From: Verrucomicrobiales bacterium
Lineage (GTDB): Bacteria > Verrucomicrobiota > Verrucomicrobiia > Limisphaerales > UBA11358
Assembly: GCA_028712475.1 (NCBI GenBank)
Contig: JAQTQB010000004.1
Coordinates: 67,368-131,367 of the forward strand
DNA: 64,000 bases
Reading direction: 5' to 3'
The notes under the pieces: generated by a model
What the model was told of the DNA's origin: nothing
The model's input: only the letters and a program-made list of their open reading frames with translations
The model's database searches: none
Shown here: piece after piece, positions 14,633 to 48,551 of the stretch
How the letters are laid out: the number at the start of each line of letters is the position of its first letter
Numbering within the stretch: the stretch's first letter is position 1
Program-made: the position numbers and the translations under genes

Positions 14633-15688
14633 ATGTCGCAGGAAAAAAATATCGCCGTCGCGCCCGATGCCACCCTGCCCTGGGCTGGCCGCTGGTTTTT
14701 CAACCGCCGCCGGTTTGCCCTGGTTCTGATTCTCGCCATTGGAGTGACCACGCCCGTGTTGCTGGCGCTCAATTGGGATCACAAACTGTTTTTCATCACA
14801 CTGGAACTGGCCACAAAATTTCTGATTGTTTATCCGGCCATTCGCGCCAACTGCCGCTGGTTTGGGCCGGTCGTCACCCGCTTTCGCACGCAGAAAAAAG
14901 CCGTCTGGCTCACCTTTGATGACGGGCCGCATCCCGAAGACACGCCGGAGTTGCTCAAGCTGCTGAAAAAACACAATGCGCGGGCGACGTTTTTCGTGAT
15001 CGGACAGCGGGTCCAAAAATATCCGGAACTGGCGCGGGCGATCTTGCGCGACGGTCACACGCTCGCCAATCACACCCAGACCCATCCCGCCCTGCTCTTC
15101 TGGAGTTTTCTCGCAACCCGCCTGACGCGGGAGATTGATCAATGCAACCAGTCATTGCGCGAAGCCGCCGGCGAACGGACGCATCTTGGCGCTGCCCCCG
15201 CTTTCTCCCTCTCCTCCACCGGGGGAGGAGAGGGTCGGGGTGAGGAGGCATCAATGTTGTCAGTTCAAATTCCCTCTCCCGCCATAGCCGCTGTCGCTGC
15301 TCCCCGTTTGGGCGGGGTGAGGGAGTCGGGGGCGGTGCCAAGATGCGCCCCCGGCGAACCGCCCCGCTGGTTTCGCGCGCCGGCGGGCATGGCCAATCTG
15401 TTCCTGCACTTTTTATTGTGCGACCGGGACATGAAGCTCATCGGCTGGTCGGCGCGCGGATTTGACGGGCTGTTTCACAATACCGAAGCCATGGCCAGGC
15501 GCATCCTCAAATCAATCCGACCCGGCGCGATCATTCTGTTGCACGAAGGCCGGCGCGACCGGCTGGGGCGTCCGGTCAATTTGCTTCTGGCCGAAACCAT
15601 CCTGATTCGGTTGAAGGCGGAAGGCTACGTTTTCACCGTGCCTGATGAAATAGATTTTCGGGGAGAATTAAAACTCACTCCTGAATAA
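14633..15688 (+). CDS. NodB-type polysaccharide deacetylase with N-terminal TM segments, carrying a 183-bp in-frame MITE insertion
   Basis: NodB motifs WLTFDDGPHPEDT, ATFFVIG, HTLANHTQTHP, then ..RWFRAPAG.. and ..IILLHEG. About 61 codons between GER and PRWFRAPAG derive from the repeat at 15177..15350. Confidence 0.88.
   Translation: MSQEKNIAVAPDATLPWAGRWFFNRRRFALVLILAIGVTTPVLLALNWDHKLFFITLELATKFLIVYPAIRANCRWFGPVVTRFRTQKKAVWLTFDDGPHPEDTPELLKLLKKHNARATFFVIGQRVQKYPELARAILRDGHTLANHTQTHPALLFWSFLATRLTREIDQCNQSLREAAGERTHLGAAPAFSLSSTGGGEGRGEEASMLSVQIPSPAIAAVAAPRLGGVRESGAVPRCAPGEPPRWFRAPAGMANLFLHFLLCDRDMKLIGWSARGFDGLFHNTEAMARRILKSIRPGAIILLHEGRRDRLGRPVNLLLAETILIRLKAEGYVFTVPDEIDFRGELKLTPE
15177..15350. 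mobile_element. MITE-like element (about 174 bp) with terminal inverted repeats and a 9-bp target-site duplication, inside the deacetylase CDS
   Basis: The ends ggacgcatcttggcgctgcccccg and cgggggcggtgccaagatgcgcccc are inverted repeats. It is flanked by the direct repeat ccggcgaac at 15168..15176 and 15351..15359. Element plus one TSD copy is 183 bp, or 61 codons. A second copy in inverted orientation lies at 20715..20876. Confidence 0.8.
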
Positions 15689-15726
15689 TCTTGATCACCC
15701 ATGCTCTTTTGATCAATTGATCTTGC

Positions 15727-17094
15727 GTGCCGAAGAAATCCACGCGCCAGCCAAAACCGCTTTACCGCCAGAAGAAGCCTAAAATTAAAGGCGATGATTT
15801 TGTCCATGCCGAGCCGATTGTTCCCGCGCATTTTGAACTCCGCGAAGACGGAACGATTGACGTTGCCAAGCGCGACGAGAAACGCGCCCCGGTTCTGACC
15901 TTCCGCGACGACACCCGCAACCTCTGGCTCTATCAAGGCAACTCCCTTGAATTGCTCGACGCCATCGCCGCCAAACATCCCGAAGGCCGGTTTGATTGCA
16001 TCTTTGCCGATCCACCGTATTTCCTTTCCAACGGAGGCATCAGTTGCCACGCCGGGCGGATGGTGAAGGTGGACAAGGGCGACTGGGACAAATCACGCGG
16101 TGCGGAAGTGAATCACGAGTTCAATCTGGAATGGCTCAAACGCTGCCAGAAAGTTTTGAAACCCAACGGCACAATTTGGATTACCGGCACGCATCACGTC
16201 ATTTTCAGCATCGGCTATGCGATGCAACAACTCGGTTTCAAAATCCTCAACGACATCGCATGGGAAAAGCCTAACCCGCCGCCGAATCTTTCCTGCCGTT
16301 ATTTCACCCACTCCACCGAAACCATTTTGTGGGCGGCCAAAAGTGAAAAATCCAAGCACCTGTTCAACTATCAGGAAATGCGCAAGGTCACGGGCAAGCA
16401 GATGAAAACCGTCTGGCGTGCCAGTGAATTTGGTGGTAGGGCGCGTCACTCCGTGCGCGCCGATGCTGGTCAGCCAGAAGACGGCGCGCAGGGGACTGAC
16501 GCGCCCTACCTTGACCCCATTTGGACGATGACTGCGCCGGGCAACGGCGAAAAGACCTTTGGCAAACATCCCACGCAAAAGCCGGTGGCGCTGGTCGAGC
16601 GTTGCATCTTGGCCTCCACACAACCCGGCGACATGGTGCTTGACCCGTTTTTGGGCGGCGGCACAACTGCCGTGGCTTGCGTCCGGCTGAATCGTGGCTG
16701 CATCGGGATTGAATTGGACTTCTCGCATTTCACGCTGGCGGCCAAACGTGCCGACCGAGAAATCATTGAACTTTGGCTGCGCGAATTCCGCGTGCGTTTC
16801 GACGTTACGATCTTTTTTCCTAATGATCTTGATCTCTTTTCTGAAACGATCAATGGATCAAGCGCGACGATGGACGACAAACCTCAAGTGCCGACCGAAA
16901 GCATTTACCACGAATGTAAATTCGTGTTCCTTTCGTGCGCCCAAGTCGAGCGCGGCGCGGTGGTTCACACGACGGTGGACGTGAGCTTGCAAGAAGCATG
17001 GGCGAAAACGCCGAATGGAAAGAAACGCGAGACGACGCACGTTGTCAGGTGTGAGACGGAAATTTTTCGTGTGGCTGAAAAGAAGCCGGTCTGA
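15727..17094 (+). CDS. Beta-class DNA methyltransferase (N6-adenine or N4-cytosine) with an uncharacterised C-terminal extension of about 100 aa
   Basis: Motif IV IFADPPYF precedes HPTQKPVALVERCI and motif I VLDPFLGGGTTAVAC. Residues after about 350 match nothing I recognise. A palindromic repeat is inserted in frame at 16435..16510. GTG start. Confidence 0.85.
   Translation: MPKKSTRQPKPLYRQKKPKIKGDDFVHAEPIVPAHFELREDGTIDVAKRDEKRAPVLTFRDDTRNLWLYQGNSLELLDAIAAKHPEGRFDCIFADPPYFLSNGGISCHAGRMVKVDKGDWDKSRGAEVNHEFNLEWLKRCQKVLKPNGTIWITGTHHVIFSIGYAMQQLGFKILNDIAWEKPNPPPNLSCRYFTHSTETILWAAKSEKSKHLFNYQEMRKVTGKQMKTVWRASEFGGRARHSVRADAGQPEDGAQGTDAPYLDPIWTMTAPGNGEKTFGKHPTQKPVALVERCILASTQPGDMVLDPFLGGGTTAVACVRLNRGCIGIELDFSHFTLAAKRADREIIELWLREFRVRFDVTIFFPNDLDLFSETINGSSATMDDKPQVPTESIYHECKFVFLSCAQVERGAVVHTTVDVSLQEAWAKTPNGKKRETTHVVRCETEIFRVAEKKPV
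16435..16510. repeat. 76-bp palindromic repeat (family B) inside the methyltransferase CDS
   Basis: ggtagggcgcgtcactccgtgcgcgcc ... ggcgcgcaggggactgacgcgccctacc forms inverted arms. The first 28 nt are identical to 36214..36241 in hsdM. Here it is translated as [25 protein letters not shown]. Confidence 0.85.
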
Positions 17095-17108
17095 TATGAA
17101 TTGCGGCG

Positions 17109-17870
17109 ATGCCGCAGCCAATCACATGGAAACAACTCGTTGCCGATGCGTTACAAAACCTCGGCGGCGAAGCCTCGCTCAAAGACATCACCGCAAAGTT
17201 AGAGAAAGATCCTCACCGGCCAGAGACCGCAACTTGGCAAGCAACAATCCGCCGTGTTGTTCGTCAATACAGTATTTTTCAATCAGTTAAAACCCAGCAA
17301 GGCTTGGCAGGTTATCGGCTTGTTCAAATGCCGAAGCCAAACCCTTCGGCGCAAAGCAAGTCAGACCCACACGGTGAGCAACAGGGAATGTTGCTGCAAT
17401 TGGGCGCTCTCTGCGGTTACGAAACATTTACCAACTCGACGGACAAGACCATTCGCAAATTTCAGGGCGAACCAATCTCAAGTTTCGCCACTGTGCGAAA
17501 TGATGCTGATGACCTGCTGGCTCTACCGCTCGAAAAAATGCGCAATACGGATGTAATGTGGATGGCTTCAGACTCGGAAGGGCTATATCCCCGTTATGCT
17601 TTTGAAATTGAGCACAGCACAAAGGTCAAAAGCGGCTTGCTCCGGCTTTTAAAGATTCCAGAGCGTTTTCCAACGAAACTATTTGTGATTGGACCTGGAG
17701 ATGAAGAGGCAGATTTATTTTCGCGTTATTTGCGTGAGTCTCCATTCAGACAACACGCGCACCGATTCCGTTTCTATCATTACAAGGAGGTTTCGGATTT
17801 TTATAAAAGCGGCATCAACTTCGATAAGCATCGCAAAAACTGGGAGATTCAATTTGCCAGCGCGTTTTAG
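17109..17870 (+). CDS. Putative type II restriction endonuclease (PD-(D/E)xK-like core, N-terminal winged-helix-like region)
   Basis: It starts 15 nt after the methyltransferase stop. A candidate nuclease motif is NTDVMWMASD..YAFEIEHSTKVKSG (D...E-x-E/K pattern). The region is AT-richer than its surroundings. The call rests on context and the motif only. Confidence 0.5.
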   Translation: MPQPITWKQLVADALQNLGGEASLKDITAKLEKDPHRPETATWQATIRRVVRQYSIFQSVKTQQGLAGYRLVQMPKPNPSAQSKSDPHGEQQGMLLQLGALCGYETFTNSTDKTIRKFQGEPISSFATVRNDADDLLALPLEKMRNTDVMWMASDSEGLYPRYAFEIEHSTKVKSGLLRLLKIPERFPTKLFVIGPGDEEADLFSRYLRESPFRQHAHRFRFYHYKEVSDFYKSGINFDKHRKNWEIQFASAF

Positions 17871-18109
17871 CTTCGTTCGCTGTTTTGCTCAAATGGGCTG
17901 AAGAGGAATGTGGCAGTGCTGACGCTTATCAACGATACCGCTATAATGTCGAAAGTTTTCCGAATGGCGGTTGCGTCTATCTGCACCGGCCAGCCTTCAA
18001 GAACAAAGGATGCGATTTTGTGGTGAACTGTGTGCCGCTGATTCCCCGCGATGATGGCAAGCAATACAAAAACCCAAGGCATGAGGATTTGGCTGGCGAT
18101 GTGAAAACA

Positions 18110-18137
18110 GTTGAGGGTTGAGGGTTGAAAGTTGAAG
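18110..18137. repeat. Heptanucleotide tandem array (4 units)
   Basis: gttgagg gttgagg gttgaaa gttgaag. Confidence 0.8.
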
Positions 18138-18193
18138 GCAAAAAGCCGGCACCTCACCCTGCCCTCTCCCCGTTCGAGGCGGAGAGAATCACA

Positions 18194-18230
18194 CAGCCGG
18201 AATGAGAAATCGTTCCGGCTGTTTTATTTT
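18194..18230 (+). terminator. Intrinsic-terminator-like hairpin plus T-run; part of a 49-bp exact repeat (18192..18240 = 19185..19233)
   Basis: 9-bp stem cagccggaa / ttccggctg, 10-nt loop, then ttttatttt. The whole 49-mer cacagccggaatgagaaatcgttccggctgttttattttaccgtgcctg recurs exactly at 19185..19233. Confidence 0.7.
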
Positions 18231-18359
18231 ACCGTGCCTGAAGAAAAAGATTTTCTCTGAAACCGCCCCTGCGCTCAATTACTTTATGACCCTTTTACAA
18301 TCAAAATAATGGCTTGCCCGCCGAATTGACGCCGCCGCAATGCTTCTCTAATCTCCGGC

Positions 18360-18659
18360 ATGGCGAAAAAGATTTCCGGCGCGAAAACTTCCGAGGCTTC
18401 CGGTGGTTCCGGTGTAGCGTCGAGCCTGCGGCTCGATAAATCCGGCCACAGGCCGGACACTACACGGCAAAAACCCAGCTCCCTCCTCGACACCCGCGTC
18501 GTTTATTGCGGTGACAATCTGGAATAGCTCGCCAAGCTGCCCAATGCCTGCGTGGATTTGATCTACATTGACCCGCCCTTCAACTCCAACCGCAACTACG
18601 AGGTGTTTTGGGGCGAGACCAAGGAGAAGCGCGCCTTTGAAGACCGCCACGAGAACTAA
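18360..18659 (+). pseudogene. N-terminal fragment of a DNA methyltransferase with an in-frame stop
   Basis: MAKKISGAK...VVYCGDNLE*LAKLPNACVDLIYIDPPFNSNRNYEVFWGETKEKRAFEDRHEN*. The DPPF motif IV region is present, TAG at 18525..18527 is in frame, and there is no motif I or C-terminal part. Confidence 0.7.
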
Positions 18660-18661
18660 AT

Positions 18662-18889
18662 GTGGAACTGGACGGCAGCCAGCACGGTTTCCCCGACCAG
18701 CGGAAACACGACGAGGAACGGGAAAAGTTTCTGCAATCGCGCGGCATCAAGACGCTGCGGTTTTGGAATTCGCATTTGCGACGCAACGCACAAAGCATCC
18801 GTGACACGATTTTCGATGAGTTGCAGGCACGCGCTCCGCGTCCCTTGCCGGAATACACCCGACCGATGAAAGTTGTAAGGAAAAGTTAG
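18662..18889 (+). pseudogene. C-terminal fragment of a DUF559 (Vsr-like endonuclease domain) protein
   Basis: (V)ELDGSQHGFPDQRKHDEEREKFLQSRGIKTLRFWNSHL matches the DUF559 core pattern (E-x-DG-x-x-H ... D..R...L...G..vlRF.N). The N-terminal part is missing. It starts 2 nt after the methyltransferase fragment. Confidence 0.6.
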
Positions 18890-18896
18890 TTGAACG

Positions 18897-19180
18897 TCCT
18901 CCCTCACCCAACTCTCTCCCCAAGGAGAGGGCTTTCGCGTCCGCCGTCCCCTTGAAAATCCGCACGCCGGGATTTGCCGGATGGTCAATCGAATCACCGA
19001 AATCGTGGCTGCTAAAATCCTCTCCTGGGGGAGAGGACACAGGTGAGGGCGGGCTAAAACACAAATTAAATTGGTTGAACAACCGCCCCCACCCCGGCCC
19101 TCTCCTCCGATGTGACCTTGCGGACAAGGCAGGGACGGCGCGCTGTGCCGTCCGGTTATCGCAGCGCGATGACCTGCCGT
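18897..19180. repeat. Cluster of short interspersed repeat modules (ctcaccc..ctctcc..ggagag type and a GC palindrome)
   Basis: Modules at about 18897..18933, 19019..19052 (inverted) and 19086..19110 share the cctcaccc..ccctctcc..ggagagg core. The same core occurs inside the MITE copies (15205..15248, 20803..20850) and at 18145..18187. Confidence 0.7.
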
Positions 19181-19186
19181 AAAGCA

Positions 19187-19223
19187 CAGCCGGAATGAGA
19201 AATCGTTCCGGCTGTTTTATTTT
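19187..19223 (+). terminator. Second copy of the terminator-like hairpin (within the 49-bp repeat 19185..19233)
   Basis: Identical sequence to 18192..18240. Confidence 0.65.
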
Positions 19224-19344
19224 ACCGTGCCTGGTGATATTTCTGCGTATATTGCCCGGCCGGACACTCAAACGCGACGGCTTGGATTTGATGCAGTTTG
19301 AGGCTGGAGCTTGAGTTCGGCGCGTGTTTCTCTTATCTGACACC

Positions 19345-20034
19345 ATGTTTTTGAGTCATCGTTCCATGCAAGCGGAGTATTTTGACCTGCCGGACCGCAC
19401 GGAGGTTGAGACTGCGGCTTCGTTCCGGGAACTCAACCGCGTCAATTGTCTCTTCCGCTTCTCGCATCCGTTTGAATCGGTGCTGCCTCAATGGCTTGGC
19501 GAGGCGAATTGCGAACGGCTGGAGATTCTCGACGTGGGCGCAGGCACGGGGCTGCTCGGCAAAACATTAACGGAATGGGCGGCGCGGCGCGGCTGGCAGT
19601 GGCGCTTCACCAATCTGGACACCAACCCGGTCGCGCTGAAAATTGGCGGGCAGCCGGACGGCGTCGTGGGTTCGGCGCTGCAACTGCCGTTCGCCGACGG
19701 CAGCTTCGATCTCGTCGTCGCCTCGCAGATGACCCATCACCTGACCGACGAGCAAGTCGTGACGCACTGGCGCGAGGCGTGGCGGGTGACGCGCGACGCC
19801 ATTTTCATCAGCGATCTGCACCGCAACGCCATGCTTTACGCGCTGGTCTGGCTGACGCTGCATCTGATGCGCGCGAACCGAACCGTGGCTGAAGACGGTT
19901 TGATTTCGGTGCGGCGCGGTTTTCGCCAGAACGAGTGGCGCGGACTGGCGGCGCGGGCGGGAATCCCCGGGGCCAATGTCTGGCGGTATCACGGCACGCG
20001 CATCATCCTGCAGGCGCGGAAAAAAACTTCTTGA
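19345..20034 (+). CDS. Class I SAM-dependent methyltransferase
   Basis: Motif I ILDVGAGTGLLG and post-I/II elements (..LQLPFADGSFDLVVAS..). The start is set at ATG 19345; a GTG at 19324 is also in frame. Confidence 0.85.
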   Translation: MFLSHRSMQAEYFDLPDRTEVETAASFRELNRVNCLFRFSHPFESVLPQWLGEANCERLEILDVGAGTGLLGKTLTEWAARRGWQWRFTNLDTNPVALKIGGQPDGVVGSALQLPFADGSFDLVVASQMTHHLTDEQVVTHWREAWRVTRDAIFISDLHRNAMLYALVWLTLHLMRANRTVAEDGLISVRRGFRQNEWRGLAARAGIPGANVWRYHGTRIILQARKKTS

Positions 20035-20068: not shown

Positions 20069-20659
20069 TCAATCCGCGCTGTTCGGGTGCAGATCAACCT
20101 TGATCAACGAACCGTCCTCGCTTGAAAGAATGACGGTGCCGACGTCCGCATCATCATTGGGGTCTTTCAATTTGGCGGCCCAGATTTTGACACGCCACTG
20201 CGGGCCGGTGTCGCCGTGTTCCAGCCGGAGCTGCGTGGCCTTGAGCGTGAGTTTTTTCAGCAGCGGCTGCGCGGTGGCAAGCTTGATCGCCTTGTCGGAA
20301 TCAATCTTCAATTTTGATGCGTCCAACGGATCCTTCGCGTCGTCAAACAATTCTAGGAACCGGCCGGGATGCGACACGTCCATTTTCTGGCCGGCGCCGA
20401 ATTTCACCTGGACGGCCTTGAACGTCGAGTCGGGATCATAATACACCACATACCAGATGTCCGGGGTGAGGCTGCCGATGGATTTTTCCGAGCGGATTTG
20501 CACGACTTTGTCCTTGGACTGCACGCCGACGTATTGATCGCCCAGTTTGACCAGTTCAAACGCCGTCGGCTCGGCGGCCAGCGCCAGACAGGCGGTGCTG
20601 AACGTCATGGCCGCACTCACGAGAATTTTTCGCGCGAAATTTTTTTGCTTAATTTTCAT
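20069..20659 (-). CDS. Secreted protein of unknown function (possible tandem PepSY-like folds)
   Basis: ATG 20659: MKIKQKNFARKILVSAAMTFSTACLALAAEP is a signal peptide. 196 aa. The domain call is only by resemblance. Confidence 0.6.
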   Translation of the reverse strand: MKIKQKNFARKILVSAAMTFSTACLALAAEPTAFELVKLGDQYVGVQSKDKVVQIRSEKSIGSLTPDIWYVVYYDPDSTFKAVQVKFGAGQKMDVSHPGRFLELFDDAKDPLDASKLKIDSDKAIKLATAQPLLKKLTLKATQLRLEHGDTGPQWRVKIWAAKLKDPNDDADVGTVILSSEDGSLIKVDLHPNSAD

Positions 20660-20714
20660 GCCCAAAGTATTTATCAGACCGCAGGCAGGTGACAACGATT
20701 AAAATACTCCGACA

Positions 20715-20876
20715 GGGGGCGCATTTTGACACAGCCCTGACTCCCTCGCCCCGCCCAAACGTAGAGACGGTTGGGATGAGGGGATTTGAGATGGAAACAT
20801 TGGTGCCTCCTCACCCCGGCCCTCTCCTCCTCGGGGAGGAGAGGGAGATAACAGGGGCGGTGTCAAGCTGCGCCCC
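20715..20876. mobile_element. Second copy of the MITE-like element (intergenic, inverted relative to 15177..15350)
   Basis: gggggcgcattttgacac ... gtgtcaagctgcgcccc are terminal inverted repeats. The internal sequence aligns with the reverse complement of 15177..15350 along its whole length by eye. I found no clear TSD. Confidence 0.75.
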
Positions 20877-20887
20877 TTTGTCAGCCC

Positions 20888-27556: not shown

Positions 27557-30500
27557 TCAAACCGCCCACTCGGCGCACAGCAGCCTGGCCTGCTCCAAAA
27601 CGGTTTGCGTGGCCTTCTCCTGCTTGTCTGGCGGATAGCCGTATTTGCGGAGGATGCGGCGGACGAGGACACGGATTTGAGCCTGGGCAGATTCGCGCAG
27701 CGTCCAGTCAATCGTCACGCTTTTGCGGACGTGTGAGACTAACTCGCGGGCGATGTCCTTTAATGTGGGTTCACCAAGAACTTTCACGGCGCTGTCGTTC
27801 ACTTCCAACGCGTCGTAAAACGCAACTTCATCATCCGTGAGGCCGAGGTCTTTGCCGCGCTTATGGCCTTCGCGCATCTGCTTGGCGAGTTCGATGAGTT
27901 CTGCAATGACCTGCGCCGCTTCAATGGTTCGGTTTTGGTATTTGCGGATGGTGGCTTCCAGCATTTCGGCAAACGAGCGGGATTGAACGAGGTATTTCTT
28001 CGAGCGGATTTTCAGTTCGTTGTTGAGCAGCTTTTGCAGCAACTCGACGGCAAGGTTGCGCTGGGGCAAATGCTGGACTTCCGCCAGGAACTCGTCGGAC
28101 AAAATTGAAATGTCCGGCTTCTTCAACCCGGCGGCGTCGAAGATGTCGATGACCTTGTCGGATGAAATCGCGCGGGAAACAATTTGCCGGACGGCCAGCT
28201 CCAATTCTTCCGGTGATTTTCCGCCGCCTTCGCTGATGCTCTTGGCCAGCACGGCGCGGACTTCCTGAAAGAATCCGACTTCATCACGAATCTCCAATGC
28301 CGAGTCATGCGGCACAGAGAGAGCGAACGCCTTGGACAGTTCCGTGACTGCCAACAGGTAGCGCGGCTTGCCGTCTTTTTGCTGCAACACATGCTCGGCG
28401 GCTTGTGCAATGAGCGGCAGCCTCTTTGCCGCTGTTGCCTTGGCCGCGCCCTCGTAATCAAACCCGTGCAGGATGGCGCAGACCTGCTCGTATTTCTCCA
28501 GCATCACGGCGACGGCTTCTTCCTGATCCAGCGTGATGTCGCCTTTGCCTTTGCTGTTCGTGTAATCGGCCAGCGCCTGTTTCAATTCCTCCGCCAGTCC
28601 GAGGTAATCCACCACCAAGCCGCCGGGCTTGTCTTTGAAAACCCGGTTCACCCGCGCGATGGCCTGCATCAGGCCGTGACCGCGCATCGGCTTGTCCACA
28701 TACATCGTGTGCAGGCTCGGCGCATCAAAGCCGGTCAGCCACATGTCGCGCACGATGACGATGCGGAACGGCTTCTTCGGATTCTTGAACGCTTTCGCCA
28801 GTTCCTCGCGCCTTGCTTTGCTGCGGATGTGTTGCTGCCACTCCAATGTGTCGGAAGCCGAGCCGGACATGACGATCTTCATCGTGCCTTTGTCATCGTC
28901 CTCGTGATGCCAGGCCGGGCGCAGTTTCTGGATCGCCTTGTAAAGCTCCACGCAGATGCGGCGGCTCATGCAGACGACCATCGCCTTGCCTTCCATCGCG
29001 GCGTAACGCGCTTCCCAATGCTTCACCAAATCCTCAGCCACGAGCGCGATGCGCTTGTCCGTCCCGACCATCGCTTCCAGTTGCGCCCACTTCCGGCGCA
29101 GACTTTCCTTCGTGGATTCCTCCGCATCTTCCGTCACTTCTTCAAAGTTCGGGTCAATCTTCGGGCGTTCCTCCGGCTTCAAATCAATCTTCGCCAGCCG
29201 CGCCTCGTAATAAATCGGCACGGTGGCCTTGTCCTCCTTCGATTGCAGAATGTCGTAAACGTCAATGTAATCGCCGAACACGGCCTGCGTGTTCTTGTCG
29301 CCACTTTCAATCGGCGTGCCGGTGAAGCCGATGAACGACGCCTTGGGCAGCGCATCCCTCATGTGTTTGGCGAAGCCGTCAATAAAATCGTATTGGCTGC
29401 GGTGCGCTTCGTCAGCGATGACGACGATGTTGCGCCGGTCGGATAGCAGCGGATGCTTGCCGCCTTTTTCATCGGGAAAGAATTTCTGAATCGTGGTGAA
29501 CACCACCCCGCCGCTGGCGACGTTGAGCAACTCGCGCAAATGTTCCCGGCTCTCCGCCTGAACGGGTATTTGCCGGATCAACTCTTTGCAAAAGGAGAAC
29601 GTGTCGAAAAGCTGGTCGTCCAGATCGTTGCGGTCGGTGAGCACGACGATGGTGGGATTCTCCATCGCCGGGTGCTGCACGATTTTTCCGGCGTAGAAAA
29701 CCATCGAAAGACTTTTGCCGCTGCCTTGCGTGTGCCAGATGACGCCCGCCCGTCTGTCGCCGATTTGATTCGTAGCAGCCGACGTGAGTCGGCTCTGACT
29801 TTCCGCTGGGGAATTAGAATGAGCGGACTCACGTCCGCTGCTACCAGTTAAAGCAACCCCCGCCGCCTTCAACGTAGATTCCACCGCCTTGTTGACTGCG
29901 TGGAATTGGTGATAGCCCGCCAGCTTCTTCACGACCTTTTCGCCATCATCTTCAAAGACGATGAAGTTGCGGACCAAGTCCAGCAGACGAGCCTTCTCGA
30001 ACACGCCTTTGAGCATGGTTTCCAGTTGCAACGAACCGGGCGGCACAAGCTCCTTGCCGGTGATGGTGCGCCACGTCATGAACCGCTCCCAATCCGACGT
30101 GACCGTGCCGAGCCGCGCTTCGTGGCCGTCCGAAATCACCAGCAGCGCGTTGGAGTGGAACAGCGACGGGATTTGCGCCTTGTAAGTCTGGAACTGGTCG
30201 AACGCCTTGCGGATGGTGGCCTGTTCGTCCGCAATGTTTTTGAGTTCCAGCAGTGCCAGCGGGATGCCGTTGATGAACACCACTACGTCAGCGCGGCGGT
30301 TGAAATGGCCTTCCTCCACTGTGAATTGATTGACCGCGAGGAATTCGTTGGCTTCGGGATTCGCAAAATCAATCAGCCAGACCTTGTCGTGAACGATTTG
30401 CCCTTCGCGGTTGCGAAACTCCACGTCCGCGCCTTCAACAAGCAGGCGATGAAACGCGCGGTTGTTTTCGATGAGCGTCGGATGGCTGATGAGCCGGAGT

Positions 30501-30721
30501 TTCCGCAACGCTTCTTGCAACCCTTCCTGCGGAACCTTGGGATTCAAATCCTTCAGCTTGGTTTGCAACCGGTCGAAAAGAAAAACCTGCTTGTAATCCG
30601 CGCGCTCCGCCGCCGGTTCGCCCGGCGCAATCGCCAGTCCCGACAAAACTTCGTATCCCAGCCCACGAAGCCAGTCGAGCGCGGCATCCTCCACGACAGA
30701 TTCGGTGATGCCTTTGCTCAT
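27557..30721 (-). CDS. hsdR: Type I restriction enzyme R subunit (HsdR), with a 72-bp in-frame palindromic insertion
   Basis: 1054 aa. N-terminal nuclease region, then helicase motifs [29 protein letters not shown] and QAIARVNR. The repeat-derived segment [24 protein letters not shown] sits just before motif I. Confidence 0.95.
29772..29843. repeat. 72-bp palindromic repeat (family C) inside hsdR
   Basis: gtagcagccgacgtgagtcggctc + 24-nt spacer (tgactttccgctggggaattagaat region) + gagcggactcacgtccgctgctac. The 24-bp arms are near-perfect inverted repeats. Related copies are at 53738..53813 and 56392..56467. Confidence 0.85.
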
Positions 30722-31834
30722 TTATGCAGGCTCAGGCAGTGTTTCGCTGAATTGTAGCCGCATCCAGCCCAGCACAACCAGATTACGGATGGCGTTGGCC
30801 AGTGCCTGCTGCTTTTCCTCCGTGCGCCACGTTTTTTTCCAATCCAGAATGAACTCGTAAAGATCGCGCTCGGCAACTTCTTGCTGGGGTTTGGATCGCT
30901 TCAATTGACGGCTGGCAAACAGCACCGTCAGCACTTCCTCGGCTTGCTCGGTGTTTTTGATGCGGCTGAATAAATCCACGGTCTTGGCAATCTTCCGCTC
31001 GTGCCGCTTCAAGATTTCCTCGTATTTCGCTCGCTCCTTTTCGTATTGTGGGCCGACGCGCAACGCGATCATCTGGCCCAAGCGTTCCTCGTGCAGCCAG
31101 TTCCGGTTCGCGAAATCATGCAGCGCCAGTTTCACCTCGTCGGCAAAAGGCCCGTAGCTGCCTTTGCCAAACTTAAAACCAGTCTCGACTCCCATTTCCG
31201 TGACGACGTAGCAAATCTTTTGAAAGATCGTCCGACCCACTGGATTCGCGTAGGGCTGCTTCTCCAACTCCCGCAGAACTTCCATCAGGACAACCCACTC
31301 AGGATTTAACTTCTCGTGCTTACGACCCCGACCATCCAATTCCATCTGCGCCGGCCCGGCCAGAAAATCTTCCTCCAACTGCGTCTTTGAAGTTCCGTAG
31401 GGGGCATAGACTTCGATCTCGATGTTGAGATGCCGCAGCTTGCCATACATCAGCGGCCCGACTTCCTCCCAACTCAATCCGCCGTTGCCGCAACCGAGCG
31501 GCGGGAACGCCACGCTCTTGACGCCCCATTCCGCATGATGTTGCACGAAATAATCCAGCCCGCGCTCGATGTCCGCCAAACGCGAGGGCGACCGCCAATG
31601 ATCCTTCGTCGGAAAATTCACAATCAGGATTCCTGAACGGTCACGGAAAAGATACGGCTCGCCCAGCCGCACTTGCTTCCGTTCACACCGTTCGGCGTAA
31701 TCCTCAAACATAGCTGGATAGCGCTTCTTGAATTCCTGCGCGACGCCCTTGCCCATGATGCCGACGCAGTTCACCGTGTTCACCCGGGTCTGGGCTTGGC
31801 TTGCAAACAAATCGCCTAAGAGTGCTTTGAACAT
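30722..31834 (-). CDS. darG: DarG antitoxin (N-terminal macrodomain ADP-ribosylglycohydrolase + C-terminal DarT-binding region)
   Basis: N-terminus ..VNTVNCVGIMGKGVAQEFKKRYP..LIVNFPTKDHWRSPSRLADIERGL..VAFPPLGCGNGGLSWEEV closely follows the DarG macrodomain pattern. It lies immediately downstream of the DarT-like gene. Its stop abuts the hsdR ATG. Confidence 0.88.
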   Translation of the reverse strand: MFKALLGDLFASQAQTRVNTVNCVGIMGKGVAQEFKKRYPAMFEDYAERCERKQVRLGEPYLFRDRSGILIVNFPTKDHWRSPSRLADIERGLDYFVQHHAEWGVKSVAFPPLGCGNGGLSWEEVGPLMYGKLRHLNIEIEVYAPYGTSKTQLEEDFLAGPAQMELDGRGRKHEKLNPEWVVLMEVLRELEKQPYANPVGRTIFQKICYVVTEMGVETGFKFGKGSYGPFADEVKLALHDFANRNWLHEERLGQMIALRVGPQYEKERAKYEEILKRHERKIAKTVDLFSRIKNTEQAEEVLTVLFASRQLKRSKPQQEVAERDLYEFILDWKKTWRTEEKQQALANAIRNLVVLGWMRLQFSETLPEPA

Positions 31835-31840
31835 GGCTGG

Positions 31841-32428
31841 TTATCGGAAAAACATTTGTGGACTGATGGTAATCGGAAGGCCAAAGCCCTGCGATTGTAA
31901 ATTTGCCGCCGCCGCTTCGTCCACGGCGTATGCCCCGGTCAGAAACCGTGGCTCGACACAATGCGGCACGAGCACTTCCGCACACTTTTGCGAACGGTGA
32001 CGGTAGTAGGCAATTGGGTCGTTCGCGTGCCGCCAGTCCATCGCGAAAATCGCGTCGTAGTCCAGCACCCCTTCCTGCCTCGGATGCAGGAAGCGAACAT
32101 AGTCACTCGACGCATTGCGATCCGCGAACACCACGCCGTCAATATGCCTCACTTCCGTTGACACCCGCAAGACGCACAACGTCGCCGCTGTGTCCTTGCG
32201 TTTGAAGAGCATCGGATTGCGGGCGTGAAAATAAAGGTTGGCGTATTGATGCAGCTTCAAACCACCGGGAACGTGCTTCAAGTCGCGCCGTTCCTGCACG
32301 ACCTCCAGTGCCACGGAATAATGCGGCACTTTCGCCGCGCGCTCGTTCGACAGAATCCCGAGCTTCACGACCGACGGAATGTTTTCCAACGGCATGATGC
32401 ATTGAAATTCTGTGACGCGGGCGTTCAT
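31841..32428 (-). CDS. darT: DarT (DUF4433) ssDNA ADP-ribosyltransferase toxin
   Basis: ..ERRDLKHVPGGLKLHQYANLYFHARNPMLF.., ..VVFADRNASS.., ..QKCAEVLVPHCV.. parallel the DarT motifs (H-x-Y-V-PFYF..R-x-PML, FTD.., AEFLV with the catalytic Glu). The start is ATG 32428, or TTG 32437 (a 4-nt overlap with the upstream gene). Confidence 0.8.
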   Translation of the reverse strand: MNARVTEFQCIMPLENIPSVVKLGILSNERAAKVPHYSVALEVVQERRDLKHVPGGLKLHQYANLYFHARNPMLFKRKDTAATLCVLRVSTEVRHIDGVVFADRNASSDYVRFLHPRQEGVLDYDAIFAMDWRHANDPIAYYRHRSQKCAEVLVPHCVEPRFLTGAYAVDEAAAANLQSQGFGLPITISPQMFFR

Positions 32429-32433
32429 TTCAA

Positions 32434-33369
32434 TCAAGAAGCCAGCTTGTGCTTCACATCAACCGCAAATTCTTCCTTGTTGATCTTTGAACTCAAGCGG
32501 TCGTTGTTCAAATACTTCAGTATGTTCTCAATCGTGCCTTCGTCGGCAATGATACGCCCCTTGCTGTCATAATTGAGCCCCCATTTGTCAGACTTGTTAA
32601 TTCTCCGAAGCGCCTTCAGATAATCGGGCTTGCGATAATAGGCGGAGTTCTTCACTTGTGAAAGCCTCCGAAGGCGGGTGACGTTATTGCCGATAAGCGT
32701 TGTTATGTCTTGAGCGTTGGCGAAGAACCCGAGGGTTTGGAATTCTTTAACAATTTCGTCGCGGTTTCGCTCCATCCCCTCTCTAAAGTTGAGTGCCGTT
32801 TCAAAGTTCTTTTTGTCAGCCACAAACAACACTCCATCGAATGAGAAGAAGTCAATTTTGGAATCAATTCGGAAGATCTCTCCTTGCTCCAGATCCACCA
32901 ACATGTTGTTTTTGAAAATCGCATTCACCAATTGCGATACCTCTTTGGCTATCCAGCCGGAGGAGATTTTTCTCGCTCCATACAAAGATGGCGTGTTTGG
33001 CAAATCCAGACGGGCGATATAAAGCCATGAGCCAACAAGGTCGTCGTAGCTATTTGCACCCTGAACATCTCCATTGCTGATTTGGTCAATCACCGCCTGG
33101 AGATCTGTCTCGTCTGTTTTGAGGCCCAACACATCATCATCCAAATCAGCCGTGTTGAAGTCGTATTGCCGAACGGCATTGCTGCTCAAAATTTTTCCTT
33201 TGGTAATCGTTCTTACCTTTTTTGCCAAAGCCGCATCAACGTTCACGTTCAGAACTTCGTAGTGAGCATCCCGATGAACCAACCTTCGCTTCACCACATA
33301 GAAAGACACGGTTGCATTCTGCCATGGATGGTCCTTGGCGTTCTTCAGGCTGGTTTGGAGTTGGCTCAT
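32434..33369 (-). CDS. KwaB-like (DUF4868-like) protein, candidate Kiwa effector
   Basis: 311-aa soluble protein directly downstream of a 4-TM protein. The C-terminal half (..IDFFSFDGVLFVADKKNFETALNFREGMERNRDEIVKEF..) resembles my memory of DUF4868. It is AT-richer than the flanking hsd genes. No search was run, so the family call is provisional. Confidence 0.5.
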   Translation of the reverse strand: MSQLQTSLKNAKDHPWQNATVSFYVVKRRLVHRDAHYEVLNVNVDAALAKKVRTITKGKILSSNAVRQYDFNTADLDDDVLGLKTDETDLQAVIDQISNGDVQGANSYDDLVGSWLYIARLDLPNTPSLYGARKISSGWIAKEVSQLVNAIFKNNMLVDLEQGEIFRIDSKIDFFSFDGVLFVADKKNFETALNFREGMERNRDEIVKEFQTLGFFANAQDITTLIGNNVTRLRRLSQVKNSAYYRKPDYLKALRRINKSDKWGLNYDSKGRIIADEGTIENILKYLNNDRLSSKINKEEFAVDVKHKLAS

Positions 33370-33924
33370 TTAGACTTTGGGGTTAACCGCAGTGACAAGA
33401 AATAGCTGTTCGGAAAGCTCTACGATTCTGCACTGGTCACTTGCTTTCAAACGCGGACCTTTGACCAAAAAGAAATCTTCCCTCTCTTGGCCGTTCTTCT
33501 CGTATTGAACGTCATAAAGGTTATAGCCAAGACAGGCCAAAATTGGGTTCACGAAGATGTTGTGTGTTTTAAGGGTCATCCAATACATGATGACCATGAA
33601 AAAGCCGAAGGAGAGCAGCATTTTGATGTCATCCAAGTTGATCACGAAGAACGAAACCAGATAAGGGATGCTGTAATTCACCAACTCACCAGAGCGATTG
33701 GACACTTTTACAATCTTGACTGTCGGAGTTGAGGTTTTGAGAAAGCGGACCGCAGCCCAGATGACAATGCAGGAAATAATTGAAATGCCGACGATGGGCA
33801 AAACAATTTCAGGATGCTTCAAACGCCAATCTGGAAGTTCAAAGTCTTGAATGAGAAAAATTACGGACAGCGGAGAGTATGCGCTGATGAAAATGAGAAC
33901 CGACGATAAAAAGCGGAGTTTCAT
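33370..33924 (-). CDS. KwaA-like four-TM membrane protein
   Basis: ATG 33924 (MKLRFLSSVLIFISAYSPLSVIFLI..). Four hydrophobic helices are followed by a soluble tail of about 55 aa. The start is 2 nt from the hsdS stop, and the stop abuts the next gene's ATG. The longer ORF to 34020 overlaps hsdS and was discarded. Confidence 0.5.
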   Translation of the reverse strand: MKLRFLSSVLIFISAYSPLSVIFLIQDFELPDWRLKHPEIVLPIVGISIISCIVIWAAVRFLKTSTPTVKIVKVSNRSGELVNYSIPYLVSFFVINLDDIKMLLSFGFFMVIMYWMTLKTHNIFVNPILACLGYNLYDVQYEKNGQEREDFFLVKGPRLKASDQCRIVELSEQLFLVTAVNPKV

Positions 33925-33925
33925 A

Positions 33926-35149
33926 TCATGTATTCCCTTTCTGTATTGGCACGCGCAACTCGCCCGACAGTAGCTTCGGCAGCAGCGCGTCGCGCAGCGC
34001 GGCGAGGGTGCGGGATTCAAGCAGATTGTTCCGAATGCGTTCCATCAATGGCGAAACCTTTTCTTCAAACTGCTCAACAACTGCCGCAAGCGGCAAAGTT
34101 ACTTGCACACCCGCCAACGTGTCCCGCGTGATTGTGTCGAAGACAGAACCGTGTGCGTGCTGTTGAAGCTGTGAAACAAGCGCACGCGTTACGAAATAGG
34201 AGTGGAAACCTTTCGTGCCCGCTTTGCCACGAAGTCCGTAGCACGATTGATTCATTGCCATTGGAACACCAACCAACGCGACTTTGCCAACCGTTCCGCG
34301 AGCGGAAATGATAGTGGTGCCTATTGGCAAAACTTGAGTGGACGAATTATCAACGCCCGCTTGGGTGATTTTCTTTTCCGTGTCTATCACGAACAAATCT
34401 GAACCTTGCGGCGCGTCCACAACTGAGAACCACGGAATGTCACCGCTCCAATACTCAGCCACAGAAGTTTTGGGCGTGCCGCCGCCGATGATTTCAACGG
34501 TTTCGGTGAACGGCACTTCGCGCCAGCCTTTGGGGAGGGCGGATTGGGTGGCGTCCACGAACCAGGATTTGAACAGGCTCTGGGCCAGCGCCTCCATCGT
34601 CTCGTTCATCCGCCGGTTCAACTCAATCTTGTCGTCCAGCGCACCCAACACCGAAGCAATGGCGTCGCGTTCTTTTTTGGGCGGAAGTGGAATGGGAATA
34701 TTTGCAAGATCGCGCAGGTTGAACGTTGCTTGAACCGTCGTTGTTGCGCGTGTCCCGATGAAATTCTGACTGAGAGAAGACCGCAGACAAAGCTCAACCC
34801 AACGCGATCCAATTTCCGTTCTAACCGGAATCACGCCAACAGCGCGAGCGACGTTCCAGCCTGCTAATTCAGTCGGAACAACTGCCGATTCACCGAGCGA
34901 CCCCACGAGCGTGAGAAGCACTTCACCACCACGAAGTCGTGAGCGTCTATATTTCGCTTCAATGTCGCTGGAAACACGAAGCGCGTCACCGGTTTCAATT
35001 CGCCCAAATTTGATATTGTTGACGCGAATTACTGGAACACCATTGGCAGCATGAGAACCGGGTTGAACAATGCCGTAACAGATACCGCGCTCTTTATCCA
35101 CCAAGTCGGACAACACCTGATGCTCCCAATTTTCTGGCAACGCATTCAC
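33926..35149 (-). CDS. hsdS: Type I restriction-modification specificity subunit (HsdS)
   Basis: 407 aa with two target-recognition halves. Each is followed by a conserved helical spacer (..LGALDDKIELNRRMNETMEALAQSLFKSWFVD.. and ..EKVSPLMERIRNNLLESRTLAALRDALLPKLLSGEL). GTG start. Confidence 0.9.
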   Translation of the reverse strand: MNALPENWEHQVLSDLVDKERGICYGIVQPGSHAANGVPVIRVNNIKFGRIETGDALRVSSDIEAKYRRSRLRGGEVLLTLVGSLGESAVVPTELAGWNVARAVGVIPVRTEIGSRWVELCLRSSLSQNFIGTRATTTVQATFNLRDLANIPIPLPPKKERDAIASVLGALDDKIELNRRMNETMEALAQSLFKSWFVDATQSALPKGWREVPFTETVEIIGGGTPKTSVAEYWSGDIPWFSVVDAPQGSDLFVIDTEKKITQAGVDNSSTQVLPIGTTIISARGTVGKVALVGVPMAMNQSCYGLRGKAGTKGFHSYFVTRALVSQLQQHAHGSVFDTITRDTLAGVQVTLPLAAVVEQFEEKVSPLMERIRNNLLESRTLAALRDALLPKLLSGELRVPIQKGNT

Positions 35150-35224
35150 TTCCGGCCTCCCGTTCTGAAAAGCCGGGTGCGGCGGGTGGTGGCCGCCGCC
35201 CCACGCGCGCCCGCCAGCGACCCA

Positions 35225-35325
35225 AGGGACTCCAACGACGGAAGATTACTCACGCCCGCCAGTGACTGAAGGGACTCAAGCGACGGAAAGGGGCGCTTCG
35301 TTTTGGTCGTTCGAGTCCTTGAAGT
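35225..35325. repeat. Hairpin-forming repeat built from gggact/aaggac-type units, downstream flank of the four-helix-bundle gene
   Basis: gggactccaacgacggaag .. gggactcaagcgacggaaagg .. cgttttggtcgttcgagtccttgaagtc. A related element in the same orientation lies at about 35895..35975 (ggacggaagggacttcaaggacggcgagggactgcgag..cgctttggtcgttattgtccctttagtcc). Confidence 0.65.
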
Positions 35326-35993
35326 CATTTCCACCCTCCTTGCTGGGCGCGGGCCGCGAGGCGGGCGCGGGTCATGCGTTCGCGCAGGCCGCCTTCTTTC
35401 AGGAAATCCTGTTCCAGGCGGCGGAGTTGCTGGTCGAGCAGGTAGTTGGTCACCTTGATCAAACCCACAATCACATTGGCGCAGATGGCGGGGTCGGGAT
35501 GCTCGATGCCTTTCTTGAAGGTGTCGTAATTTGCGCCGGGCGTGCGGTTGAGCCGGCGCAAGCGCTGGGCGTAGCGGTGGTCGGGCGTCCATTCCTCGAT
35601 TTTGCGGGCGCGCATGAAATCGCGGTAATCTTCGAGCAATTCCTCCTGGCTGGCGCGGGCCACGTTGGTGAGCTTGAGTTCGGTTTCCTTGGATGTGCCG
35701 CTGGCCTGGCTGCCTTCGAGGATGTTTTGTTTGCCGGAGCGCGCGGCCTGCACCATCTGGTCGTGGGTGCGGGACTTTTTGTCAACAAACCGGTCACAAA
35801 AATACTGCGTGGCCTGAAACACCACCAAGGCTTTCTGGTAGGAGAGGAGTTCCTGGTAGCCGCCGTGAGCGGGGATGAAGCCATCAGCATCATCCGGAGG
35901 AAAGGACGGAAGGGACTTCAAGGACGGCGAGGGACTGCGAGTTGCCGTCGTCGCTTTGGTCGTTATTGTCCCTTTAGTCCTTGGCTCAGGCAT
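35325..35993 (-). CDS. Four-helix-bundle protein with suffix domain (23S rRNA intervening-sequence-protein-like family)
   Basis: Core ..[80 protein letters not shown].. matches this family. The first 30 or so codons (..[22 protein letters not shown]) are read through a repeat element, so the true start is uncertain. It overlaps the hsdM stop by 8 nt. Confidence 0.75.
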
Positions 35994-47366: not shown

Positions 47367-48551
47367 ATGGCAACGAACGTGAATAAACCATCCAAGAGCT
47401 TCGCGGAGTTTTTCGCTGGCATCGGCTTGATGCGCATAGGACTGGAACGAGCTGGCTGGCGTGTCGCGTTTGCCAATGACATTGATGAAGACAAGCAGCG
47501 CATGTATCGTGACCACTTCGGTGACAACGAGGAATTCGTCCTGGGTGATGTTCATAAGTTGGATGCTTGCGAGATTCCCGACATTGCTTTGGCCACCGCT
47601 TCGTTCCCATGCAATGACCTTTCGCTCGCTGGAGCACGACGTGGTTTAGCTGGAGATCAGTCATCTGCTTTCTGGGGCTTCGTTGACGTCCTGACCAAAA
47701 TGGGACAACGGCGTCCACCGATGGTCTTGCTCGAAAACGTCACGGGCTTTCTCAGTTCACATGAAGGGAACGATTTCAGAGATGCCCTTTTGGCGCTTAA
47801 TCGTTTGGGCTACGCGGTTGACGCCTTGATTATTGATGCCCGTCGTTTTGTCCCGCAGAGCCGTCAACGCCTCTTTGTGATTGGAATGCGGACACCAAAT
47901 GTTTCCGCGCTGAATGATACGCCAAAATTTTACGAAAGTGATTGCAGACCTCCCGCTCTCGCTGACTTTATTATGTGGAATGCGGACATCAATTGGCGCA
48001 TTCGACAACTTTCTCCGCTGCCAGTTCCAACGACTCTTCTTCCAGACATCTTGGAAGACTTATCGCCCAACTCCCAAGTATGGTGGAGTCGCGAACGCGC
48101 CGATTATTTGCTCAATCAGATGAGTCCGAAGCATCGGGCACAAGCTGAGGTGATGATTCAAGGCAAGCGTATAACTTACGGCACCGTGTTCCGAAGAGTT
48201 CGCAAAGAACGGTCGATGGCCGAATTGCGCATTGACGGAATTGCCGGCTGTTTGCGCACACCACGCGGCGGGAGCGGAAGGCAAATTCTCTTTGCCGCCG
48301 GGAGAGGGCGTTTTGCTGTCCGGTTGCTTACGCCGCGCGAATGCGCGCGTTTGATGGGGGCGGATGACTTTGTCATCAATGTGCCGTTGAACCAAGCATT
48401 CTTTGGTTTTGGTGATGCCGTTTGTGTGCCGGTAATCGAGTGGATTGCGCGCAACTATCTTAACAACGTCTGGGAAGAAGATTATGCCTCACAAGAAATC
48501 ACAAACAAAATCGAAAACTTCGTCTCCTACCGGAAAACCAGACGCAAGTAA
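47367..48551 (+). CDS. dcm: DNA (cytosine-5)-methyltransferase
   Basis: Motif I FAEFFAGIGLM, motif IV SFPCNDLSLAG, motif VI LLENV and the C-terminal ..RLLTPRECARLMG..GDAVCVPV. AT-richer island. Confidence 0.93.
   Translation: MATNVNKPSKSFAEFFAGIGLMRIGLERAGWRVAFANDIDEDKQRMYRDHFGDNEEFVLGDVHKLDACEIPDIALATASFPCNDLSLAGARRGLAGDQSSAFWGFVDVLTKMGQRRPPMVLLENVTGFLSSHEGNDFRDALLALNRLGYAVDALIIDARRFVPQSRQRLFVIGMRTPNVSALNDTPKFYESDCRPPALADFIMWNADINWRIRQLSPLPVPTTLLPDILEDLSPNSQVWWSRERADYLLNQMSPKHRAQAEVMIQGKRITYGTVFRRVRKERSMAELRIDGIAGCLRTPRGGSGRQILFAAGRGRFAVRLLTPRECARLMGADDFVINVPLNQAFFGFGDAVCVPVIEWIARNYLNNVWEEDYASQEITNKIENFVSYRKTRRK

Follow-up and report, generated by a model that had tools for sequence, protein, structure and literature searches.

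Two neighbouring insertions, one with a predicted type II restriction-modification module, at the 3' end of a polysaccharide deacetylase gene in a Verrucomicrobiales bacterium

Contig JAQTQB010000004.1 of an uncultured Verrucomicrobiales bacterium (GCA_028712475.1) was analyzed over a stretch of 64,000 nucleotides (positions 67,368 to 131,367 of the forward strand), hereafter called the window. Within it, a lipid or polysaccharide gene cluster is interrupted between a polysaccharide deacetylase gene and a methyltransferase gene by about 3.6 kb of DNA, in and around which three direct copies of a 10-nt core are found. An original prediction, made from the letters of the window, regarded these cores as attachment (att) sites of successive site-specific integrations. 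The question is whether this locus indeed records such integrations or another kind of event. Our comparison points to two inserts at two sites, namely block A, a predicted restriction-modification (R-M) module in the last codons of the deacetylase gene, and block B, a patchwork in the intergenic DNA behind it. Both were probably inserted by non-site-specific, short-homology recombination, and the third core is probably not a third att site.

The original prediction had asked for a comparison of the locus with related genomes, which was carried out. More than 1,200 homologues of the deacetylase were found, the closest being ~75-84% identical and mostly from metagenome bins labelled Verrucomicrobiia. 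Five orthologue clusters were looked up, and gene order in the loci recovered for four of them (L004, L098-L101, L102-L105 and L106-L108) reads acyltransferase, family 2 glycosyltransferase (GT2), deacetylase, S-adenosylmethionine (SAM)-dependent methyltransferase, radical SAM, ketoacyl synthase (KAS), unknown, acyl carrier protein (ACP). The deacetylase-methyltransferase gap measures 45-95 bp in eleven related loci of four orthologue clusters, and the junction is uninterrupted in every relative having the methyltransferase as its downstream neighbour. Because related loci join the two genes directly, the 3.6 kb is evidently a foreign insertion in a conserved acyltransferase-GT2-deacetylase-methyltransferase-radical SAM-KAS-ACP cluster, and the predicted splitting of a lipid cluster was borne out. 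The GC content is 0.45-0.56 over 15.6-19.3 kb versus 0.60-0.65 in the flanks. A metagenome scan with the deacetylase protein gave two useful relatives among the matches listed (L018 and L019), neither with the insertion. Exact-protein look-ups yielded no relative of at least 90% amino acid (aa) identity in the collections, the other record being a second assembly of the same organism. Because such strain-level relatives are lacking there, the empty sites were inferred from relatives of ~80% aa identity. The features at the borders of the interval are as follows.

14633-15688, + strand: polysaccharide deacetylase, 351 aa (PF01522, E 8e-31); native reading to 15659.
15631-15659, + strand: target duplication, left copy, TTTCACCGTGCCTGATGAAATAGATTTTC; continues to encode the end of the deacetylase; core at 15635-15644; one substitution from the orthologue GATGAAAAAGATTTTC.
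18192-18240, + strand: first 49-mer copy, with the hairpin (18193-18222), a T-run (18223-18230) and the core (18231-18240).
18231-18278, + strand: evident displaced native 3' end of the deacetylase gene, consisting of the core, AAGAAAAAGATTTTCTCTGA, the stop codon (18258-18260) and 18 nt of intergenic DNA ending in CTCAA (18274-18278).
19185-19233, + strand: second 49-mer copy, with the hairpin (19186-19215), a T-run and the core (19224-19233); within block B, 38 nt from its right end.
19234-19266, + strand: 33 nt, GTGATATTTCTGCGTATATTGCCCGGCCGGACA, with no convincing match elsewhere; at the same offset after the third core as the native tail after the second.
19272-20034, + strand: native intergenic remainder (19272-19344) and SAM-dependent methyltransferase gene (19345-20034; Pfam Methyltransf_11/25); 81-83% nucleotide identity to L098-L105 from 19270.

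As predicted, the core ACCGTGCCTG starts at 15635, 18231 and 19224, always on the + strand, and it occurs nowhere else in the 64 kb. Its chance expectation is 0.15, and three copies were reached in none of 100 shuffles. Likewise, an identical hairpin precedes the second and third cores inside an exact 49-bp repeat (18192-18240 and 19185-19233). The 49-mer has no further copy in the window at up to three mismatches, and its 30-nt hairpin occurs just twice. The 25-29-nt target that is duplicated at the first and second cores is single-copy at the deacetylase 3' end in L004, L098-L108 and L001, all relatives of ~80% aa identity.

Next, the gene ends at the first and second cores were compared, and 26 of 29 nt were identical without gaps. 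The open reading frame (ORF) through the second copy ends at 18260 and translates to ...FYFTVPEEKDFL and a stop, with the C-terminus FTVPEEKDFL. The deacetylase orthologues are ~282 aa long, and ~115 complete ones end in FTVP[DE]E.DFL or a close variant. Because its translation matches this consensus, the second copy is evidently the displaced original 3' end of the gene, in agreement with the original prediction. The present deacetylase ends in FTVPDEIDFRGELKLTPE, in which an 8-residue tail is foreign (the last nine codons and the stop, 15660-15688, RGELKLTPE, come from the inserted DNA). The tails GATGAAATAGATTTTC and GAAGAAAAAGATTTTC are each one substitution away from the orthologue GATGAAAAAGATTTTC, which fits a duplicated target with slight drift. 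The number of sites is too small for the perfect 49-mer to count as significantly younger than these tails. The junction J1 has the sequence GATTTTCGGGGAGAATTAAAACTCAC.

Block boundaries were then determined by alignment with the relatives. Past the second core, native sequence runs for 38 nt, comprising the canonical tail with its stop codon and a further 18 nt (AACCGCCCCTGCGCTCAA), to the CTCAA at 18274-18278; these 18 nt resemble the intergenic DNA of relatives (~11/18 matches and equal spacing). Homology is lost at 18278 and is back at 19270-19272 (ACGCGACGGCTTGGATTTGA..., 81% identity to L098), after a second CTCAA at 19267-19271. When 15645-18240 and 18279-19271 were left out, the reconstruction was gap-free and colinear with L004, L098 and L106. 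The join from 18278 to 19272 scored 137-146 in the alignments, versus 118-126 for a join of the first core to the third. Because the former join wins, the third core and the 33 unrelated nt after it are placed inside block B. Since native sequence continues past the second core and resumes after the second CTCAA, block B is evidently a separate, intergenic insertion, and the comparison resolves two inserts at two sites, one in the last codons of the gene and one behind it. In this model, the empty site of block A would be ...GTTTTCACCGTGCCTG joined directly to AAGAAAAAG, and that of block B would be ...GCGCTCAA joined directly to ACGCGACGG. The original prediction had taken the cores as the limits of both segments. 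Its first segment is indeed bracketed by the first and second copies, whereas the second is bounded by CTCAA and carries the third core internally. Accordingly, the idea of stacked att-site integrations agrees with block A, which lies between duplicated gene ends, but not with block B, at which the rightmost core lacks a displaced gene end.

The two 87-nt stretches 18192-18278 and 19185-19271 are exact in their first 49 nt and last 5 nt, and their 33-nt interiors are equal in length and unrelated. Alignment detected no relation between the 33 nt after the third core and the native gene tail (p = 0.12). A pattern search and BLAST against the window and all 117 loci for the source of these 33 nt gave a single 11-nt match, in a REP (repetitive extragenic palindromic)-like element. 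J2 and J3 agree in their distance from core to CTCAA, 38 nt; therefore, the length of block B equals the spacing of the 49-mers, 993.

Other rearrangements were observed in and around the same cluster. In L001-L003 and L019, which belong to two other lineages, synteny breaks right after the deacetylase stop codon and different genes come next; the end of this gene appears to be a recurrent rearrangement boundary. At 15174-15352, the deacetylase gene contains an in-frame, composite REP-like element of ~180 nt, which accounts for 61 residues that are not in the 282-aa orthologues. The P0001 lineage (76% identity) shares this insert at the same position, and an inverted copy, 75% identical, precedes the radical SAM gene at ~20715-20878. 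An extra reverse-strand gene (~180-208 aa, no Pfam match), whose N-terminus resembles a signal peptide by eye, lies together with a REP composite at 20069-20880, between the SAM-methyltransferase gene and the radical SAM gene. The corresponding gap in relatives is ~25-150 bp or an overlap, so the cluster holds a further insertion of ~0.9 kb.

Block A contains the following features.

15660-18230, + strand: block A, ~2.57 kb, a predicted R-M unit with a repeat-rich right end; low in GC and not in 11 related loci.
15711-15722, no strand assigned: palindrome GATCAATTGATC, within the conserved leader that precedes the methyltransferase (MTase) gene.
15727-17094, + strand: beta-class DNA amino-methyltransferase, 455 aa (PF01555 N6_N4_Mtase, E 5.9e-57, profile 2-220/221; DPPY motif).
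17109-17870, + strand: putative type II restriction endonuclease (REase), 253 aa (PF27126 NmeDI_C, precomputed annotation).
17885-18106, + strand: truncated 5' portion of a third module gene, which breaks off here at ~18106 and has ~155 codons at full length in L117.
18107-18191, + strand: GTTGAGG-type short repeats and a REP-like palindrome (ctctcccc...ggagag); the same motifs stand before the hairpin in L013 and L015.

The original prediction that the first segment carries a type II R-M pair was supported by the PF01555 and NmeDI_C matches, and block A qualifies as a predicted type II system by its MTase gene with an adjacent, co-inherited putative REase gene. The MTase also gave a partial CcrM-like match. 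The REase gene always adjoins the MTase gene in four other assemblies (L111, L112, L114 and L117), and its family has ~100 clusters, essentially all from the same clade. For the REase, NCBIfam and the PDB gave no match, and our local Pfam copy only a sub-threshold match to Forkhead; for the third gene, no match was obtained in Pfam, NCBIfam or the PDB. The leader upstream of the MTase gene is conserved in the same four assemblies, and its palindrome may act as an operator or promoter for the module. A variable loop of the MTase contains an in-frame, REP-like inverted repeat at 16419-16517, with arms at 16435-16452 and 16493-16510; L117 lacks this insert, and L111 and L114 have different ones at the same loop.

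These four modules are 74-87% identical in nucleotide sequence to that of block A, the left part of which is 86-87% identical to L111 (from 15672) and L117 (from 15690). The homology sets in 13-31 nt past the duplicated target and extends to 17870, or to 18106 in L117, whose ORF goes on for another ~250 nt. Because the homologous modules lack them, the right 125 nt of block A (GTTGAGG repeats, REP and hairpin) lie outside the conserved module. All four lie at unrelated sites: L111 and L112 have the module beside a small reverse-strand gene (labelled toxin-antitoxin-like as a guess from reading the sequence), L114 has it between a ClpXP/RNase III region and an apparent tRNA gene (judged by eye), and L117 between inverted REP copies. 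None of the four is accompanied by the core, the hairpin unit or a deacetylase-tail copy, and flanking direct repeats were absent around the three that were searched (L111, L112 and L114).

Block B was found to be composed of the following parts.

18279-19271, + strand: block B, 993 bp, an intergenic patchwork flanked by 5-nt CTCAA (18274-18278 and 19267-19271).
18360-18659, + strand: N-terminal fragment of a second DNA amino-methyltransferase, with a DPPF motif; in-frame TAG at 18525-18527, cut off at 18659.
18659-19047, + strand: C-terminal half of a DUF559 (Vsr-like) gene (ORF 18662-18889; PF04480, E 2e-10) with a downstream REP.
19048-19184, + strand: further REP-like repeats, matching repeats in L005, L117 and the window itself (15224-15242 and 20812-20830).

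Thus, the methyltransferase fragment, DUF559 fragment and repeats previously read from the letters were all recovered. The first fragment matches the N-terminal 50-60 residues of beta-class amino-methyltransferases (PRK11524 in NCBIfam, positions 13-59, E 1.7e-7; CcrM, RsrI and EcoP15I Mod in the PDB). The segment 18659-19047 is 88% identical in nucleotide sequence to positions 585-973 of L015, where a full 119-aa DUF559 gene is followed by the REP and then by the same hairpin. Because these three stand in the same order in L015, the hairpin of block B is taken as the terminator belonging to the DUF559 module.

With a GAAA loop on a 13-bp stem and the tail TTTTATTTT, the hairpin folds at -23.6 kcal/mol (z = -5.2); its two copies head the list of terminator-like structures in 12-26 kb. 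Its 22-mer CCGGAATGAGAAATCGTTCCGG, at 18196-18217 and 19189-19210 in the window, was found with the T-run as exact matches at 13 loci (L005-L017) in ten other metagenome-assembled genomes, mostly Verrucomicrobiae; by our own arithmetic, ~0.07 chance matches are expected in 596 Gb. In those genomes it lies 7-250 nt past the stop codons of genes that are unrelated, often where two genes converge, and is frequently preceded by GTTGAGG-type repeats and REPs. Several genomes have two or three copies sharing private flanks of ~40-50 nt (L007/L009 and L010/L011), like the 49-mers of the window. The hairpin is therefore classed as a predicted recurrent intrinsic (Rho-independent) terminator of the clade, behaving like a dispersed terminator module. 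The original prediction had itself named a common REP-type terminator as an objection; the hairpin is indeed common, but the extension through ACCGTGCCTG is private to this locus. The tail after the hairpin in L011, TTTTATTTTGGCGTGCC, was considered as a sign that the core is intrinsic to the hairpin unit and was dismissed as too weak (9/17 matches). CACTC at the same offset after the first and third cores and a CCGGACA(A)CTC match to the flank of L111 were both within chance. Rfam returned sub-threshold noise alone, with the REPs weakly resembling whalefall-1.

As for the recombination mechanism and the order of events, we propose that foreign DNA was taken up at least twice, at two different points of the deacetylase-methyltransferase junction, with decay and patchwork in what would be a repeat-rich hotspot. 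Block A, as a selfish type II R-M module, would have entered the deacetylase gene within its last nine codons, with a duplication of 25-29 nt of target sequence. The left target copy would then keep the gene open with a new tail and the right copy would be the displaced end, each having acquired one substitution since. Block B would be a separate patchwork insertion 18 nt after the old stop codon, with 5-nt CTCAA flanks only. Its contents are a 5' remnant of a second MTase gene, a 3' half-gene of DUF559 together with its own REP and terminator, and further REPs. Both blocks end in this genome's version of the GAAA-tetraloop terminator unit. For the 49-nt identity, which includes 10 nt of deacetylase sequence, the simplest account would be a secondary copying of the junction between hairpin units by recombination, conversion or template switching. 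No integrase, recombinase or transposase domain was detected in the island, which had been described as integrase-free, or among ~40 of the 54 largest ORFs of the window scanned with Pfam, and we infer that a dedicated integrase was not involved.

We hold this combination, a non-site-specific insertion of block A, a separate patchwork in block B and junction copying between hairpin units, to be about evenly balanced between right and wrong. Several observations speak against it. The duplication of 25-29 nt is under the >30-bp criterion of the class of R-M insertions to which block A is compared below, and within the range of att identity segments. Tandem site-specific integration would predict precisely such a third core right behind an identical hairpin, and our account needs an extra, ad hoc copying step. 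The equal 38-nt core-to-CTCAA distances and the identity of block B length and 49-mer spacing (993) are accounted for by no model that we considered. Moreover, the native status of the 18 nt after the old stop codon is modestly supported by the ~11/18 matches and spacing, the inspection for integrases covers 64 kb of the genome, and the empty sites were read from relatives of ~80% aa identity.

The closest competitor is tandem accretion like that of cis-mobilizable elements (CIMEs), in which blocks A and B would be decayed, integrase-less remnants of one element family that integrated successively at the deacetylase 3' end, the integrase acting in trans or having since been lost. The attP would be hairpin-TTTTATTTT-ACCGTGCCTG followed by a gene-end copy. 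The three direct cores, the identical 39-nt left arms at the second and third copies, and the left arm of block A, which mimics the gene end at 13/15 nt and leaves the gene open, are all expected from such a history; ICESt1-type CIMEs are known to have R-M or defence cargo and to form tandem remnants without an integrase at the 3' ends of genes (PMC5704250). However, any tandem site-specific model demands the original gene end after the rightmost att, and here it is missing after the rightmost junction; the canonical end and native-like intergenic DNA stand behind the middle copy. The homologues of the R-M module at other sites are without these arms, the hairpin of the supposed P arm is a generic clade terminator that belongs to the DUF559 module in L015, and no integrase was seen among the ORFs scanned in the 64 kb. 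Because its predictions for the rightmost core and for shared arms fail, we favour non-site-specific insertion and regard tandem accretion as unlikely. Alternatively, the whole 3.6-kb composite may have formed in a related donor and entered in one step by homologous recombination through the flanking genes, its internal repeats recording events in the donor; this is compatible with a non-site-specific or a site-specific mechanism. The conserved cluster flanks of deacetylase and methyltransferase offer the homology, GC is uniformly lower over the whole interval, and the deacetylase of the P0001 lineage with the same REP insert suggests exchange or shared ancestry at the locus. Against this, the searches turned up no donor that has even part of the composite at this locus, and the nearest homologues of the R-M module (86-87% nucleotide identity) lie at other sites, and we think such an import somewhat less likely still.

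A local duplication would produce J2, J3 and the exact 49-mer in one step. Here, block B would have been resident first, and unequal exchange between the ACCGTGCCTG of the gene and a fortuitous copy after the terminator of block B would have duplicated the interval, making the junction of hairpin, core and native tail; the R-M module would then have replaced most of the first copy. This course is improbable in our view, as it requires a chance 10-14-nt match in the right place and a later replacement ending exactly at the border of the 49-mer, and the two intervals share nothing else. The segment order around the 49-nt repeat might also have been mis-resolved in assembly. Logan contigs (k=31) of the same organism break in the hairpin and the REPs (L109 starts at 19204 and L110 spans 16433-18221), and the joins across the 49-mers are therefore without independent confirmation. 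All unique segments, however, recur at 100% identity in the second assembly, and ordinary reads, like the k-mers that standard metagenome assemblers use, are longer than a repeat of 49 nt, so that we give an artefact hardly any credence. Lastly, beyond acting as a terminator, the hairpin unit could serve for recombination in a cassette system that is undescribed and lacks an integrase, possibly with a hairpin-recognising HUH/RAYT-like or integron-like enzyme encoded elsewhere. In that case, ACCGTGCCTG ... CTCAA at the fixed 38-nt spacing could be cleavage or target sites, and the enzyme could stack defence-gene cassettes behind genes; we consider such a system very improbable.

The favoured reading of block A was compared with known systems. 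Insertion of R-M genes with long, variable target duplications and without mobility genes is a published class (Nobusato et al. 2000; Furuta, Abe & Kobayashi 2010, PMC2853133). PMC2853133 used a cut-off of >30 bp for the duplication and <20 kb for the insert and does not settle the enzymology of this insertion. Block A resembles the class in its size of ~2.57 kb, its R and M genes, the lack of a mobility gene in the island or the scanned ORFs, its atypical GC content, and a direct duplication with near-identical copies that is single-copy at the empty site of relatives. In contrast, its duplication of 25-29 nt is below the 30-bp cut-off, the genomes compared are ~80% aa relatives rather than conspecific strains, and a third, partial repeat copy lies in a neighbouring insert. 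In the ICESt1/ICESt3 family at fda, CIMEs arise by tandem accretion of remnants of integrative and conjugative or integrative and mobilizable elements at a gene 3' end (PMC5704250). An integrase-less segment between direct repeats that include a gene end, a gene kept intact through element-borne sequence, R-M or defence cargo and a stacked appearance are shared with the present locus. Unlike CIMEs, the locus has a rightmost repeat without a displaced gene end and a block B bounded by CTCAA rather than repeats; no cognate integrase or attP was identified here, and related cargo modules elsewhere lack the arms.

Similarly, the hairpin unit and the ctctcc...ggagag palindromes are like REPs, bacterial interspersed mosaic elements (BIMEs) and repeated terminators in being multi-copy in many genomes, lying behind genes and breaking short-read assemblies. 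Unlike dispersed REPs and BIMEs, one copy of the unit carries 10 nt of neighbouring coding sequence, which therefore argues for recombination between copies rather than simple dispersal. Cargo genes each followed by a hairpin site, arranged head-to-tail and without a recombinase of their own, also recall integron cassettes. The hairpin differs from attC, having a perfect 13-bp stem, a GAAA loop and a T-run and lacking R''/L''-L'/R' boxes, extrahelical bases and a GTTRRRY core; no IntI or attI was found, and block A has three genes. The attC reading was therefore rejected on the terminator architecture and the lack of an integrase in the ORFs scanned. An IS200/IS605 reading, suggested by the TTAC/TCAA-like ends of block B, and a transposon reading were also rejected, as terminal inverted repeats, a subterminal left hairpin and a transposase were not found.

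If the favoured reading is right, a selfish R-M module has settled in the last codons of a housekeeping-type gene of an uncultured Verrucomicrobium without inactivating it, and R-M mobility without visible mobility genes, a known pattern, extends to a new phylum. The host may have gained R-M defence together with an addiction module. The methyltransferase, radical SAM and KAS genes lie behind the two strong predicted terminators and would no longer be coupled to transcription from upstream. Repeat-rich intergenic units, here REPs and a shared hairpin, can thus mimic att-like site-specific integration, which calls for caution in island-finding pipelines. A new mechanism would be at hand only if the hairpin-cassette reading were true; otherwise, the locus would represent a known kind of event, with ordinary scars and a common terminator.

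Further defence genes were observed elsewhere in the window. A second defence island on the - strand (27557-37641) carries a type I R-M system with hsdR (27557-30721), hsdS (33926-35149) and hsdM (35986-37641). Between hsdR and hsdS lie a Macro-domain gene and DarT, which make up a DarTG pair, and a KwaB-like gene. At 47367-48551, the window encodes a C-5 cytosine DNA methyltransferase, which may form a third R-M system together with the overlapping ORF at 48445-49218.

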